Positions 4,133 through 27,354 of a DNA stretch of 64,000 bases are shown piece after piece. How positions within the stretch are numbered: the first letter of the stretch is position 1; every line of letters starts with the position of its first letter. The notes under the pieces are model-generated. The model did not search any database. It saw only the letters and a program-made list of their open reading frames with translations, and had not been told where the DNA came from. The stretch comes from Eledone cirrhosa (Eukaryota). Where the stretch lies: contig OZ024740.1 in NCBI GenBank assembly GCA_964016885.1, forward strand, positions 320,478,001 through 320,542,000, read 5' to 3'. The translations under genes were made by a program, and so were the position numbers.

Positions 4133-4735
4133 TGTTTACAAACAAACCGAGCATTATAATAAATGTTCGGTAAACCCATACGTACATATATATATATATG
4201 TGTGTACATGTATGTATGTATATACATACTACTGTACGTTTGTATACATATATGTATGTACGTATACATACTTATATTTAAGTATCAGAGTGAGAAATGT
4301 ATAAGAGTATAAGAGTGAGAAATGTATAAGTATAAGAGTGAGAAATGAAATTTCATTTTTTCCATTTATCGTTTTCGGTACACCCGGCCGACTAACTCAC
4401 TCGATATGCAAATTAGGCTGCTCAGCCGTTAATATGCATAAGGAAAGTATATACTTTCAAACGTTCAATCGACTGACAGGAAGGTATACGGTGCTGATGA
4501 CAGCTAATAAGCTAGAAACTAGTTCATCGTTCCTTTGTCAGTGTTGAACAAAAGGGCAACGATGATTGCCGAACACTGTACGGCTAATAATTCGGGCTGT
4601 TTGTTTACAAACAAACCGAGCATTATAATAAATGTTTGGTAAATCCATACGTACATATATATATGTGCATGTATGTATATACATACTACTGTACATCTGT
4701 ATACATATATGTATGTACGTATACATACTTATATA
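4133..4735 (+). mobile_element. Penelope-like pseudo-LTR cassette: direct repeats 4133-4277 and 4603-4735 around a hammerhead
   Basis: TGTTTACAAACAAACCGAGCATTATAATAAATG occurs twice; the cassette ends in (TA)n. Confidence 0.6.
4488..4530 (+). ncRNA. Minimal type-I hammerhead ribozyme motif
   Basis: ACGGTG CTGATGA c-AGCT-aata-AGCT-a GAAA CTAG TT CATCGT: stem I ACGGTG/CATCGT, palindromic stem III, GUU triplet. Confidence 0.75.
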
Positions 4736-4750
4736 TATATATATATATAC

Positions 4751-5176
4751 GGGATAACAGGTTATCGTTATAGGCAGTCCACTTAGATGTAGTCCAGTTG
4801 GAGTAGTTCGTGTAGTAGAAAATAGAAAGGTCAATTTTCTGCAGACATAGGATTGCTACAAAATTCGCGAGATTTAAACCACTGTGATTCGAACCAATGT
4901 CACTTAGCTTTTAACATATAAAATCCGCCTTCTCACAGCCCAATATGGAACTATAATCATCTATAAATACCTTATAGCCTCCCTAATTCTATTCCACTGG
5001 AATGTGTCTACAACTATCTTATCAGCCCATAAATCAATCCCATCTTCGCTGTTATTCACTCCTTCGGACCAAGCATTTATATCTCTCATTAGCACTCATG
5101 ATCTCTAACAGATGAACCTAATTCTAAGTACATTGTCTTATTACTCCTACACCCCTTGAAATCTTACTTTCCTCTT
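4751..5176 (-). pseudogene. Possible degenerate Penelope-like (GIY-YIG end) remnant, apparently continuing at 10516-11100 beyond the LINE
   Basis: Minus-strand peptide ...ADKIVVDTFQWNRIREAIRY resembles GIY-YIG C-terminal RxIREAI motifs; abuts (TA)n. Weak. Confidence 0.35.
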
Positions 5177-5243
5177 GCCCTTGTGGCTAATAAATGAAAT
5201 CATTATTATTATTATTATTGATATTAGCGATTAAGACGAACAG

Positions 5244-6794
5244 TTGGCCAAAGCGTGGAGGCTAATTAAACGGGAGAAGTCCTGGGCAAACCTGGCCATC
5301 CCGAACGAGGCAATAGCGGCCATGCAAGGAGGACGGTGTTCTTTCGATGTATTTCGGTGCAGACACGAAAAGTGGAACTTGCCAGCCAAGCAGAGGTCGA
5401 GGCTGCTTTGGAGTACATCGGAAGTAACATAGAGTACAAAGCAAGAGGCAAACAGTTCGGTACCATCTCGGTACTGTTCAAAACCGAGGCTCTCGCTATT
5501 AAGCACTCGGTGATCCCCCGCAGAACGGAACGCATTATCATGCATCCGTCCTACATGGGTAAAAAAACAGCAAAGGTACGCATTCCCAGCATCCCACCAG
5601 GAATGAACATATGGTGGCTGCTGGGATGCGTAATCGAGGAGGGGACAGACACTACCCTCCTGGATATCAAAAGAACAGAGAGAGGACTGGTCCGGAATGG
5701 ATTTGGAGATTCTTCTCCAAATGAAACCGGAGGATATTAATAACATCCCGGATTTTGCCCGCCTGCAGGACGGGACAACAATCCAACTGATCATTGACGG
5801 AAGAAGGCCACGCTGCTTCGTCTGCGGGGAAGCAACGCATCTTCAAGCCTTCTATCCTCAGCGCAAAAATGCAGGGGGTCGCAAACCTCCTTTGTTGCCA
5901 ACGCCAGTGTCAGCACGGAAAGCTGCTCCACCACCACCACCGAAAACAACACCAACAAAAACACGGACACCAACATCAAAAGCAGCCGGATCACCACCAA
6001 CACCAAAACCAATCCAAGGAGAAAACGAGGAAAGATCCCCCCCCCCCAATTATACACATAGACAAAACAATAAACGCACACACAGACACAGAGACACGCA
6101 CAGACACAGACCCTTTGTCTTCCAGCAGCGAAGATGAAGGAAAACCCAAAAGTGCAAAAAAAACAGAGAAAACTCACAAAAAAAAGCCCCAACAAAACAC
6201 AAAAACATACACAACAAAAAATACAGACACCACTAACGCAAACACTTCCCCAATAACATCATCACCAACAGCAACATCGACACCACCTCCACAATCCCCG
6301 AAACGCAAACAACCTAAACAAACACAAGTGCAAATAAATACACAAATACCTGAAATTGTAGACACCACACCTACAACAAACATAGACATACCCGAAACAA
6401 CACCACCAAAACCATCGCCACCACAGTCACCAAAACGAAAACAAATAAAACCACACCAACAAAATGTTAAAAACTTCGTGCTTGTCAGAAGGGCCAACGA
6501 TAAACTGATGGCCCTCTTAGCGCGAAGCGAGGACATTCAAACAGAGGGGGAGATTTTTTAAATGTGCACATTTTGCGTGCCAGAAGATTTGCTTCTGGTC
6601 CGAATGTCACTCAATTCCTTCAAAGAAATTCGAGAGAGCTTTCCTCAAGACGTGAGAACCCCGAATGTGAAACCCACATCAAGACTTTTAAAGGGGTTCC
6701 CAAAAGAAACCCCACCAACCATGGAGGTCGAACCACCCGACCTTCACAAGACCTTCCCTCTCTCTCTCTTAGCTTACCAATATGGCCATATTAA
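5244..6794 (+). pseudogene. LINE ORF1 (gag-like), frameshifted
   Basis: Overlapping ORF pieces; RCFVCGEATHLQAFY (degenerate CX2CX4HX4C); Pro/Thr/Lys-rich linker. Confidence 0.7.
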
Positions 6795-25152: not shown

Positions 25153-25217
25153 TATTTTATCTGATGAAAGCACACCATAATTTAACTTGGTGTCCTTGAA
25201 ATATGTATAATGAAATA
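25153..25217 (+). ncRNA. Type-I hammerhead motif
   Basis: TATTTTAT CTGATGA AAGcACACCA-loop-TGGTGTcCTT GAAA TATGTA TA ATGAAATA; (TA)n ~130 nt downstream. Confidence 0.75.
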
Positions 25218-25360
25218 AATATGGTTTTATAAATATAGTTTCCATTTGTTAATATATCGTATTTTTACTTCAATAATTTGTTGAGTGCTTTATATCAGTT
25301 ATAAAAATATTTGCTTGTTGTATCCCAACAATTTAAATAGAACTTCTACATATATATATA

Positions 25361-25963
25361 TATAGCAATGATTTGATGATCGTGTTGGTAGTGGATTGTG
25401 TTGTGGTGTGGTCACTGTTGTGTGATAGAGTGTGACCAGAGGTTATATGTGTGCAGGTAAGTGAGTAAGTGTTCAATAAGATGATATGATAGTTCCTTGA
25501 TCACGCAGAAAATGAATATATATAAATGAACCACGATGACACCAAACCTCTATATTATTAATCTATTGAAAATAGTTCACGCTGAAGCCATACGAAAAAT
25601 ATACAAGAATTATGGACGTTATTTGTTTGTTTGTAAAAGTAGAATTAATGAACTTCACTGGTTTGGTTGAGAGAGAGACCAAGAGATAGAGATTGAGTGA
25701 AAGAGAGAGAGTAAGAGGAAGTAAGATCCCAAGAGGTCTGTAGAAAGCAATAGTTTACATGTTTACTCAATCCAAATTCGCTTGGTCTGATCTAAGGTAC
25801 ACTATTTATCTATGTCGCTTCCTCGGTCTCCAAGACTTGAGAACAAAGGGCTGACCTTTCGAGGTCGTCCAATCTCAGACCTGTTGACACCCAAAAGGAG
25901 ATAACCCATAAAATGACCGTTAACTGTCATCCAGGGGTCAACGTATGGTCAGATTTCACTACA
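25361..25963 (-). mobile_element. Putative solo LTR within (TA)n
   Basis: Minus strand starts TGTAGTGAA and ends TTGCTATA (imperfect TG..CA inverted ends); TA repeats on both sides. Confidence 0.45.
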
Positions 25964-26007
25964 CACACACATATATATATATATATATATATATATATAT
26001 ATATATA

Positions 26008-27354
26008 AAGAACAAACGAGTTTCACATCGAGGTTTTTATTGATTAGGCTCAGTTACAAATGTTTCACAGATGGGTGGCTCAGGATCCATATTAGTGTTA
26101 TAGACCCGACTCCAACCACAATCAATTAATAAGTCTGATGAGCTATTGGTGTTGGAGTCTTGTCTATAACACTCATGGTTCTAGGACAGCATTCCTCACC
26201 ATATGAGATGTCATCTGGTGTACCACAGGGATCTGTTCTTGGCTCCCTTTTGTTTGTGGCATATATTAATGACATAGATACCAACTTAAAGAATGCCACA
26301 GTACTGAAATATGCAGATGACATCAAAATGTACCTTGAGGATAAAAAGGACAGATCCTGAACACTGTAGATCTTGCCTGCAATCTGACCTGGACACAATG
26401 CAACAATGGATCTCAGACTGGCAACTGAAGCTAGCTGTGGACAAGTGTACCACCATGCATTTTGGGAGTAAAAACCCACCGTCCACATACTCCCTCCACA
26501 ACACTAATATCAAGAAGTCTTCTTGTGAACGTGACCTGGGCATTACGGTCAGCAGCGATTTGCGTTGGACGAAGCACGTTCCTAAAATTGTCAAAAAGGC
26601 TGAGGGTGTCTTAGTATCACTCAGCAAGACCTTTGTCAGCCGCTCTCCAGTTATCTATTTAAAGCTGTATCTAGCTATGTTGCGACCACACTTAGAATTT
26701 GTATCACCAGTCTGGAACCTCTATCTTGCTCAGAACATTGACTGCCTGGAAACTGTTCAGAGACATGCAACCAAGCAAATACCCTCCATCAGGCATCTAC
26801 CATACTCTGAACGCCTTGCTTCCCTGGGCATGGATACATTGAAGCTCCGACGTCTGGCAACTGACTTGGTAAACACCCACAAAATTATTAACCATCTTGC
26901 CAACAACAACCCTGAGTACCTTTTTGATTTTCATGTGTCTAACACGCGTGGGCATGCCCACAAAGTCAGAAAACAACACAGCTCCCATGACTTTCGGAAA
27001 TATTTTTTCACGCTTAGAGTTGTTGAAGCATGGAACAAACTCCCTGCATCACTTGTTAGCTGTCGAGACACTGCATTCTTTAAAACCTCCAAGCTTCCTG
27101 ATATTCGCCAACACTACACCTAATGTTCCCCCTCCATACATGTATATCATGACTCATACACTATTCACTTCCCTGACATTTGTATATTATTCTCTGTACC
27201 ATACATGCACCTTTGACAAGTTGTGTGCATCTGAGCACTGTACACAATAATTTCATTATTATTATTTAATATGAATCCTGAGGCACCCATCTGTGAAATA
27301 TTTGTAACTGAGCCTTATCAATAAAAACCTCGATGTAAAACTCATTTTGTTCTT
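26008..27354. repeat. Fold-back hammerhead cassette split by a CR1 insertion
   Basis: Left arm 26008-26122 is the inverse of 26145-26173 joined to 27268-27354; CTGATGA at 26135, GAAA at 27295. Confidence 0.8.
26173..27266 (+). mobile_element. 5'-truncated CR1-clade LINE
   Basis: SGVPQGSVLG, KYADD, ERDLG, RPHLEF..PVW, TRGH..K, FFTLRVVEAWNKLP; (ATT)n tail. Confidence 0.92.

Follow-up and report, generated by a model that had tools for sequence, protein, structure and literature searches.

Penelope-like elements (PLEs) of the Hydra clade have been published as TA-targeted, hammerhead-bearing elements and include Hydra-1_Obim of Octopus bimaculoides (Craig et al. 2021, PMC8557442). For a Poseidon element, PAc of Anolis carolinensis, the part of Frangieh et al. 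(2024, PMC11167929) considered here reports that both target strands are cut and extended in vitro, that two internal start sites bound the tail, that hammerhead mutants still insert, and that a dimer is predicted. Neither the role of the PLE hammerhead nor the way in which inverted, one-tailed insertions originate has been settled (PMC8557442, PMC11167929). We analyzed a window of 64,000 nt from Eledone cirrhosa (GCA_964016885.1, contig OZ024740.1, positions 320,478,001 to 320,542,000, forward strand), in which an earlier note had described seven hammerhead cassettes set in (TA)n tracts. It is highly probable that five of the seven are 5'-truncated ends of PLEs with Hydra motifs lying in (TA)n, and their fold-back was likely made anew at each insertion by cDNA priming on both target strands.

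Hammerhead cassettes of the window

Type I hammerhead motifs with stem I are found at 4494(+), 11150(+), 14362(-), 15996(+)/15851(-), and 25161(+). The motif is real, since a hammerhead descriptor gave 8 matches in the window versus 0.075 ± 0.28 in 200 local shuffles (maximum, 2). Five of these matches are named cassettes, and all five have (TA)4 35 to 230 nt downstream, compared with 13.6% of random positions; the other three lie in the element at 22368-23193 (family H) and have no (TA)4 at that distance. The hammerhead at 15851(-) escapes the descriptor because the inner pair of its stem III fails. On one genome strand, the 3' half-core followed by (TA)n occurs 9,764 times versus 29 times for the control. 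An Rfam scan placed none of its 107 matches at E ≤ 1 in a hammerhead family; all 107 are to miRNA or snoRNA models, fall on repeats and hairpins, and score below the gathering cutoffs. The output of an inverted-repeat scan of the whole window was dominated by TA tracts. Of the 31 TA tracts in the window, 10 adjoin an end of a named element and 1 more adjoins a decayed remnant. The suggestion in the earlier note that such elements may help explain the microsatellite landscape is unsupported. The elements are arranged as follows.

4133..4737 (+): family A, 1.4 units of a tandem hammerhead repeat of ~430 nt, with TA tracts at both ends
4488-4530 (+): family A hammerhead, domain II 14 nt, predicted cut after 4524
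4752..4793 (-): family B, inverted tail piece (long end), beginning at the TA tract common to family A
4819..5176 (+): family B, final 22 GIY-YIG endonuclease codons (4819-4884), then the first part of the 3' UTR
5177..10484 (+): 5.3-kb LINE (AP endonuclease, RT, zf-RVT) that is inserted in the family B copy and does not belong to the cassette
10485..11309 (+): family B, remaining 3' UTR and pLTR, hammerhead 11146-11255 with domain II of 83 nt, short end at (TA)n 11310
13494..13635 (+): decayed remnant of another hammerhead family, with its end at (TA)n 13636
14054..14420 (-): family D, long-end arm; its core is intact (CTGATGA at 14362), domain II has 70 nt, and the tail runs to (TA)n
14425..14585 (+): family D, the arm facing the other way; its core is mutated (CTAATGA at 14470), and its end is at (TA)n 14586
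15221..15447 (-): family E, short-end arm in inverted orientation; it includes the 5' box position, where the sequence is not CTGANGA
15447..15722 (+): family E direct arm, 3' half-core 15508-15519, position of an AATAAA-type box, and a tail that reaches (TA)n 15723 as the long end
15739..15929 (-): family C, short-end arm in inverted orientation, with its hammerhead box at 15851; its TA tract is also that of family E
15930..16251 (+): family C direct arm, hammerhead 15992-16065 with domain II of 47 nt, and a tail that reaches (TA)n 16252 as the long end
22368..23193 (no single strand): family H, tandem unit of ~325 nt in direct and inverted copies, absent from the earlier note
22532(-), 22857(-), and 22998(+): three intact family H hammerheads
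25082..25349 (+): family F single arm, hammerhead 25153-25217 with domain II of 30 nt, long end at (TA)n 25350; this copy has no inverted arm
26008..26125 (-): family G, inverted arm, its short end lying at (TA)n 25971-26006
26126..27435 (+): family G, direct arm carrying the 5' box at 26135 and the 3' half-core at 27295; the tail reaches (TA)n 27436
about 26175-27267: LINE fragment splitting the family G core

The common CTGATGA core that had been assigned to all cassettes is present at 4494, 11150, 14362(-), 15996/15851(-), and 25161, but it is missing from 15219-15565, which has no box, and from the plus arm of 14263-14576, which reads CTAATGA at 14470; cassette 26008-27354 contains both half-cores, but they are 1.16 kb apart (26135 and 27295) with the LINE fragment between them. 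Inverted arms starting at (TA)n do occur in four named cassettes (14263, 15219, 15736, and 26008). The cassettes had been drawn too short: the elements reach (TA)n at 14053, 15723, 16252, and 27436 through a tail, and the element at 11146 starts near 4752. Core, stem I, and helix III are all present in families B, C, D, and F, and their cleavage is a prediction. An AWTAAA box frequently lies past the predicted cleavage site. Domain II measures 14 nt in family A, 30 nt in F, 47 nt in C, 70 nt in D, and 83 nt in B; its folding beats that of shuffles in F and in one of two D copies, weakly in C, and not in B. Among the 38 hammerhead clusters found in 1.18 Mb, 17 have a domain II of more than 40 nt. 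Hammerheads of this kind are likely missed by short-helix descriptors, and published hammerhead counts may therefore be low.

Parent elements and tandem units

Longer copies of families B, C, D, E, and F continue into an RT (YRDD) followed by a GIY-YIG endonuclease at the C terminus (Y-C...Y[IV]G). The terminal repeat that holds the hammerhead occurs downstream of the ORF and again directly upstream of it, and the tail is the next unit's 5' UTR: a natural family C copy (L026) has the order hammerhead, tail, ATG, and R-W-K, and the ORF directly follows the hammerhead repeat in two family F copies (L234, L235) and in the inverted arm of a family E copy (L230). An ORF of about 2 to 2.7 kb and a 3' UTR of 0.7 to 1.6 kb give units of roughly 3 to 4 kb, as pieced together from partial copies; most ORF copies seen are broken. 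The RWK motif is present in B and C, is RWR in E, carries a stop at W in an F copy, and was not seen in the D copies examined. DKT is found in C, D, E, and F, with NKT in the single B copy spanning the motif. The CxCX5C linker and CxxC-E are present in all five families, whereas CCHH is absent, only one Cys lying within the GIY-YIG core. N-CxH was detected in B and D by motif scan and in one F copy (L236) by eye, and was not seen in the C and E copies.

These motifs argue strongly that families B, C, D, E, and F are RT-endonuclease PLEs with Hydra-clade motifs, a reading that shares the high confidence given to the explanation as a whole. Pfam returned no relevant match for any of six RT/endonuclease pieces of these families, and a PDB search did not recognize their RT and endonuclease; the clade assignment was therefore made on motifs and by-eye comparison with the published alignment. 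A homologue search retrieved six nameless proteins at 35 to 43% identity. A Naiad PLE was rejected as the identity of the RT because the endonuclease proved to be C-terminal; the motif, moreover, is DKT and not DKA. The parents are paralogues, with B and D 72.5% identical over 2,139 nt and other pairs 65 to 82% identical over shorter stretches, so the description of the cassettes as unrelated holds for the noncoding ends, where matches are only 18 to 34 nt long and surround the 3' half-core, but not for the elements themselves.

The ORFs also bear on the view that these are tiny, ORF-less fold-back ribozyme elements, mobile as such and yielding self-cleaving hairpin RNA. Many copies are only 250 to 500 nt long, families A and H are short tandem units without an ORF, family G has no traced parent, and 38 hammerhead clusters lie in 1.18 Mb; yet five of the seven families run into an RT and GIY-YIG ORF, which refutes the view for B to F, and only the tandem unit at 4494 fits it. 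Together with the junction, folding, and family E data given below, this makes such a guild very improbable. Hammerheads, TA targeting, multiple families, and the pointer to Penelope-like elements, all put forward in the earlier note, were borne out.

Family A recurs as four units at ~430-nt spacing in one locus (L225) and as two units each in two others (L223, L224), some with core mutations. The cassette at 4494 probably represents a tandem retrozyme that is non-autonomous and is moved by a PLE-type protein. No parent ORF was found for it, and two RT neighbors (L054, L229) were rejected as its parent, the repeat and the ORF not being joined. For family G, no parent ORF was found for the cassette at 26008 either; the nearby RT/endonuclease pieces come from different families, and the upstream sequence that the copies share ends in a (TG)n tract, ~150 nt above the query. 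Its end anatomy is the same as that of the PLE families.

In all copies seen, family E lacks the catalytic box. CTGANGA is present in 0 of 30 sampled copies, in 0 of 100 among the matches listed for a genome pattern with 796 matches, and nowhere in the 4.7-kb copy L230. A search for an intact E core gave two genome matches, both with unrelated upstream DNA; its gap of 75 to 105 nt barely reaches E's own spacing, and the 796-match pattern is the better test. Because family E has spread without the box, cleavage in cis is likely dispensable for spread. The family provides a natural catalytic knockout with an intact-core relative, in agreement with the in vitro dispensability of cleavage.

Element ends and fold-back formation

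Each family has two fixed outer ends, about 45 to 60 and 130 to 220 nt past the predicted cleavage site. Within the element, the short ends lie at steps that contain TA, and a short end at 34 to 66 nt is present in 18 of 38 hammerhead clusters. Sampled copies were 86 to 100% identical to the query, and the A, B, C, D, and F queries included the core. Per 30 copies, the 3' end lies at (TA)n in 29 for C, 27 for B, 25 for D, 28 for E, 27 for F, and 16 for the older family G. Of 90 two-armed insertions, 85 combine a short end with a long one; when family F, whose query forced the long end, is left out, the figure is 70 of 75. The five exceptions comprise three long-long pairs (two with partial ends, leaving L299/L300 as the one clean case) and two short-short pairs. 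About half of the sampled copies have no second arm within 1.5 kb, and the pairing rule covers two-armed copies only. The 5' truncations form a ladder, and the inversion points vary (30 copies per family).

Such 5' ends do not suit DNA-transposon MITEs or foldback elements carrying chance hammerhead-like words in their inverted arms. Inverted arms, TA flanks, and high copy number would agree with that origin, but the two arms differ by a fixed tail, copies with one arm are common, the motif far exceeds its frequency in shuffles, and the RT-endonuclease ORFs of the parents refute it, so that it is hardly credible. Nor is the fold-back a family design, as had been supposed, since the 5' break and the inversion point change from copy to copy. 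The idea of self-cleaving hairpin RNA fares no better: by folding prediction, hammerhead formation inside the fold-back costs 112 to 127 kcal/mol, and the fold-back is predicted to trap the ribozyme. For the ORF-less guild, these variable junctions, this cost, and the boxless family E add to the evidence against it.

By analogy with the anole PLE in vitro, a protein, probably a dimer, would bind RNA spanning the hammerhead and the 5' UTR and nick both strands of the palindromic TA tract. Priming would take place at the near site on one target strand and at the far site on the second; the two cDNAs would run back over the uncut hammerhead, stop early at variable points, and be joined head to head into the fold-back. 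These priming steps are taken from a Poseidon element of another clade, for which the consulted part of PMC11167929 saw no start-site difference between strands. The same elements might form fold-backs by another route, in which a single cDNA that starts at the far site either snaps back or switches template, or else primes itself on antisense RNA; the short end would then result from an endonuclease cut in the copy, made at a TA-rich step that lies ~50 nt beyond the hammerhead. This route likewise predicts one short and one long end, and the TA-containing steps fit an endonuclease cut; PMC8557442 attributes the tail to endonuclease resolution of an intermediate, and PMC3846280 argues for self-priming from junction palindromes. 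Against it, both tail boundaries map to reverse-transcription start sites in vitro and both strands are extended, according to the relevant part of PMC11167929, and several inverted arms (L005, L013, L027, L074, L076, L126, L142) consist of tail only, with little or nothing common to the direct arm, which simple snap-back does not give. We consider this second route unlikely.

Returning to priming on both strands, we tentatively suggest, with more doubt than conviction, that the hammerhead region of Hydra-type PLEs may serve as a landing and measuring signal and not as a cutter. The 3' half-core and AWTAAA box would set the first priming site ~50 nt downstream in every family, and the dimer would assign the near or far site to each strand; domain II would then be free to reach 100 nt, and the catalytic box could be lost, as in family E (about 800 or more copies). 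Whatever the route, the one-short-one-long rule constrains any insertion model, and this genome supplies many parallel families with sharp ends.

Comparison with known systems

Families A (~430 nt) and H (~325 nt) resemble the non-LTR retrozymes, in the parts of the sources considered (Cervera and de la Pena 2020, PMC7229834; Li et al. 2026, bioRxiv 10.64898/2026.07.22.740005), in being built of tandem units that lack an ORF, each unit having a compact type I hammerhead as well as a palindromic loop III. Family A is slightly longer than the ~300- to 390-bp units given there, and it lies in TA tracts. Naiad PLEs have in common with the present elements a (TA)n preference, inverted 5'-truncated copies, and occurrence in cephalopods, but their endonuclease is N-terminal, they carry DKA, and they lack a canonical hammerhead (PMC8557442), whereas the endonuclease here is C-terminal and the motif is DKT. 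With PAc, as far as the available part of PMC11167929 goes, the shared features are a pair of fixed internal start sites that bound the tail and lie downstream of the hammerhead, an AT-rich target, and insertion without hammerhead catalysis. The PAc start sites are inside the ORF, whereas the putative ones here are in the 5' UTR; its target is ATT rather than (TA)n; and it belongs to a different clade. Pairing of the two start sites within one insertion is not reported for PAc in that part of the paper.

The closest match is the Hydra clade (PMC8557442). Both have a single ORF with RT and C-terminal GIY-YIG, the motifs RWK, DKT, CxCX5C, CxxC-E, and N-CxH, (TA)n targets, and, close to the 3' end, a type I hammerhead (predicted here) whose helix III has 3 to 4 bp; a 5'-truncated inverted copy is described there for Penelope-13_HM. 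The Hydra consensus sequences end 29 to 69 nt (12 families) or 87 to 152 nt (11 families) past the cleavage site, as measured by hand from Files S1/S2 of PMC8557442 to ±2 nt, with 2 non-fitting families left out. Several dimensions differ: domain II is 30 to 83 nt here and at most about 26 nt in the Hydra rows, units are estimated at roughly 3 to 4 kb (3' UTR, 0.7 to 1.6 kb) compared with "generally <3 kb," and tails are 80 to 165 nt compared with the 30 to 40 bp described for PLEs. The hammerhead is called universal in the Hydra clade, whereas family E has no CUGANGA box; this family is a variant in that respect but otherwise behaves as a Hydra element. What goes beyond published descriptions is the pairing of a short with a long end, a domain II of 47 to 83 nt, a family without CUGANGA, and the AWTAAA box after the cleavage site. 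These amount to a modest variant; the elements are not a new class and are of a known kind with modest variation.

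Hammerhead cassettes and their surroundings

The hammerhead cassettes are real and far above chance, and they are mostly of a known kind, namely Hydra-type ends of Penelope-like elements (PLEs) and retrozyme-like tandems. A descriptor comprising stem I of at least 4 bp, CTGANGA, 8 to 110 nt, GAAA, helix III, and UH was used together with a listing of all CTGANGA words in the window; it gave 8 matches, versus 0.075 ± 0.28 in 200 local shuffles. Five correspond to cassettes A (window position 4494), B (11150), C(+) (15736), D(−) (14263), and F (25153), all with (TA)4 at 35 to 230 nt (13.6% of random positions), and the remaining three form element H. 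Across the 3.0-Gb genome, whose repeats have a cephalopod look, the forward strand carries 9,764 occurrences of the 3' half-core (one variant) followed by (TA)4 at 40 to 65 nt, against 29 for a matched reversed control; on the other strand, where each TA phase was counted separately, the numbers are 54,753 against 134. The motif's enrichment near (TA)n, proposed in the earlier note, held in these controls, whereas the common core that the note assigned to all seven cassettes was found by the descriptor in five; E (15219) lacks the 5' box, the core of G (26008) is interrupted by a LINE fragment, and that of the D plus arm is mutated. An Rfam scan returned 107 matches, none to a hammerhead family.

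Of the window's 31 TA tracts, ten border an end of A to G and one more borders a decayed remnant. Two of the ten are common to two elements (A/B at 4730, E/C at 15723), indicating that elements stack into the same tracts.

Features of the window
4752-11309: B copy, in the order inverted tail piece, 22 endonuclease codons, 3' UTR, inserted 5.3-kb LINE, hammerhead
5177-10484: near full-length LINE inside the B copy (AP endonuclease, RT, zf-RVT; ORF pieces 6773-7648 and 7596-10208; (ATT)n tail)
13068-13120 and 13494-13635: decayed remnant of a hammerhead that ends at (TA)n; a duplicate of its final ~45 nt lies 500 nt upstream
22368-23193, direct and inverted: H, a GC-rich ~325-nt tandem unit with three intact hammerheads and a 7-bp stem I
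26175-27267 and 28928-29974, opposite orientation: LINE 3' fragments of one family (574 nt, 94% complementary)
11506-11602, 12485-12676, 21795-21936, 33125-33490, 45927-46149, and 48338-48835: dispersed ~190-nt SINE-like repeat
18617-19177: tandem array, 21-nt unit × 26.6
19269-19585: tandem array, 30-nt unit × 10.7
31787-32079: tandem array, 17-nt unit × 15.3
37939-40800: tandem array, 59-nt unit × 48.7, 95% matches

The duplicate of the remnant's end adjoins a 20-nt repeat that recurs as its reverse complement at 13950-13990. A short duplicate of the 3' end of the 5177-10484 LINE precedes that element, and the fragment at 26175-27267 is the one splitting the G hammerhead. Insertions of the SINE-like repeat also occur within several PLE reference copies. 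The 59-nt array starts with a CTGATGA word; no hammerhead was found there. A decayed coding-like stretch at 19950-20720 is, as we take it by eye, similar to a Gypsy-type protease/RT.

Repeat families and their coding parents

Each cassette is a repeat family. The own-genome search yielded first-look candidates, which are not copy numbers (A, 2411; B, 2455; C, 1283; D, 1384; E, 913; F, 136; G, 808); scoring covered 40 candidates per family, and 30 loci of each were retrieved. Truncation of the 5' end is graded in every family, as a ladder spanning a few nt to >1,400 nt (<300 nt for G). The point of inversion varies from copy to copy. An inverted arm is present within the 3-kb loci in 15 (C), 11 (B), 12 (D), 20 (E), 15 (F), and 10 (G) of 30 rows, some rows being the two arms of a single insertion. 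CUGANGA is intact in 27 (A), 27 (B), 28 (C), and 26 (F) of 30 copies and in 13 of 30 for G, an older family with 86 to 94% identity to the query.

Twenty-eight copies, selected by length or paired arms, were extended. Upstream of B, C, and D, the extension reaches RT and then a C-terminal GIY-YIG domain, and E and F are likewise joined to an RT plus C-terminal GIY-YIG ORF; the tiny, ORF-less guild of the earlier note is therefore not borne out for B to F. The ORF is flanked by inverted E repeats in two sampled loci (L230, L232), begins directly after the F repeat in L234 and L235, and precedes it in L236. In a C copy (L026), the hammerhead is followed without interruption by the short end, the tail, an ATG, and R-W-K; the tail thus belongs to the next unit as its 5' UTR. 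The proteins of B and C carry RWK and that of E carries RWR; DKT, CxCX5C, CxxC-E, N-CxH, and a single Cys in the GIY-YIG core are also found among the Hydra-type proteins. The relevant sections of PMC8557442 give these motifs, including RWK, as diagnostic of the Hydra clade (section 11), describe the clade as (TA)n targeted and hammerhead bearing, and list an octopus Hydra-1_Obim (supplement). Judged by motifs, B, C, D, E, and F are very probably ends of Hydra-type RT plus GIY-YIG PLEs; Pfam and PDB searches of the B to F proteins did not recognize the RT or endonuclease. For G, no joined ORF was found among 12 extended loci.

In L212, L220, L230, and L235, Asn/Thr/Arg-rich low-complexity inserts of 50 to 200 residues between RT and endonuclease resemble the N-rich inserts described for Adineta Penelopes (PMC3846280). 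A second, distinct PLE type (RT, weak RVT_1 match) adjoins Hydra-type copies (L215:1779-2456 and 8034-8999; L216; L122; L046), and helicase-like reading frames with a Walker A motif, possibly of a Helitron, lie beside a C copy (L212:105-1373).

Two ends and a candidate insertion route

Ends of the families, in nt past the predicted cleavage site (near-end distances include a few TA-matched bases)
B: near 61; far 212
C: near 50-56; far 190 in the window, 175 when measured on a reference whose tail is slightly shorter
D: near 54-59; far 220
E: near 44-49; far 208
F: near 46-51; far 144
G: near 49-60; far 133

Among insertions with a visible second arm, counted after arms of one insertion were merged by hand and a position-ordered E sample was added, 85 of 90 pair a near with a far end, 3 pair two far ends, and 2 pair two near ends; without F, the proportion is 70 of 75 (binomial p of 1e-15 versus free choice). 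For an anole PLE, PMC11167929 reports cutting and extension of both target strands, two internal reverse-transcription start sites bounding the tail, and normal insertion by hammerhead mutants; a dimer is predicted. By analogy, each strand of a TA tract would prime, one at the near and one at the far site; both cDNAs would traverse the uncut hammerhead, stop early, and be joined head to head, giving (TA)n, short arm, junction, long arm, and (TA)n. Most arm junctions show an overlap or gap of at most ~10 nt. We lean toward this two-strand priming with head-to-head joining as the origin of the fold-backs, the main rival being snap-back followed by endonuclease resolution.

A survey of all clusters grouped 317 matches into 38 clusters over 1.18 Mb; some are subfamilies of one another, so that the counts are not independent, and large clusters are present by construction because the loci were chosen for holding A to G. 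A TA tract lies 34 to 66 nt past the cleavage site in 18 of 38, and AWTAAA within 25 nt in 15 of 38 (upstream control, 2 of 38; background, 4.5%), comprising 13 of 18 clusters with a near end versus 2 of 20 others. That the tail is often at one end only is already published (PMC8557442). Our literature search, with subscription journals, Repbase reports, and some supplements mostly outside it, found no report of the pairing rule, the AWTAAA box, or long-domain-II or core-less Hydra hammerheads.

Ribozyme anatomy and known systems

In isolated motifs, the predicted hammerhead fold lies 3 to 8 kcal/mol above the minimum; PLE hammerheads are reportedly weak alone, needing dimers or protein (PMC4209133, PMC11167929). 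Within fold-backs the predicted cost is 112 to 127 kcal/mol, so read-through should yield double-stranded RNA and not the self-cleaving hairpin that had been proposed.

E retains stem I, the 3' half-core, AATAAA, and the near end, with a different 7-mer at the CUGANGA position. CUGANGA is missing from 30 of 30 copies read (some truncated ahead of the box) and from 100 of 100 among the matches listed, of 796 in the genome. E may be cleaved in trans, or the other 696 matches may include a rare source copy in which the box is intact. In a relative (L248/L312), the core is intact and domain II spans 20 nt; the adjacent RT is 73% identical to that of E over 248 nt. In E copies such as L271, the 12 nt after C3, reverse-complemented, match the missing box with one mismatch; the box may have been destroyed by a small inversion, with no flanking inverted repeat in support.

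G shows the near/far anatomy; at one locus (L242, G000:C3:170870333-170873409), a ~50-nt G piece around the 5' box has been amplified to ~58 tandem copies, so that a hammerhead cassette gave rise to a satellite. A forms tandems of as many as four units (L225); the ~430-nt unit contains a compact hammerhead but lacks an ORF, a layout as in the non-LTR retrozymes of PMC7229834, which are argued to derive from PLEs (bioRxiv 10.64898/2026.07.22.740005). H, missed in the earlier note, shares this layout and is not anchored in a TA tract; a relative occurs in L215.

The variant features are worth specialist attention. Domain II measures 14 nt in A and exceeds 40 nt in 17 of 38 clusters; whereas it reaches ~26 nt in the Hydra rows of the table in PMC8557442, it extends here to 30 (F), 47 (C), 60 (G), 70 to 78 (D), and 83 nt (B).
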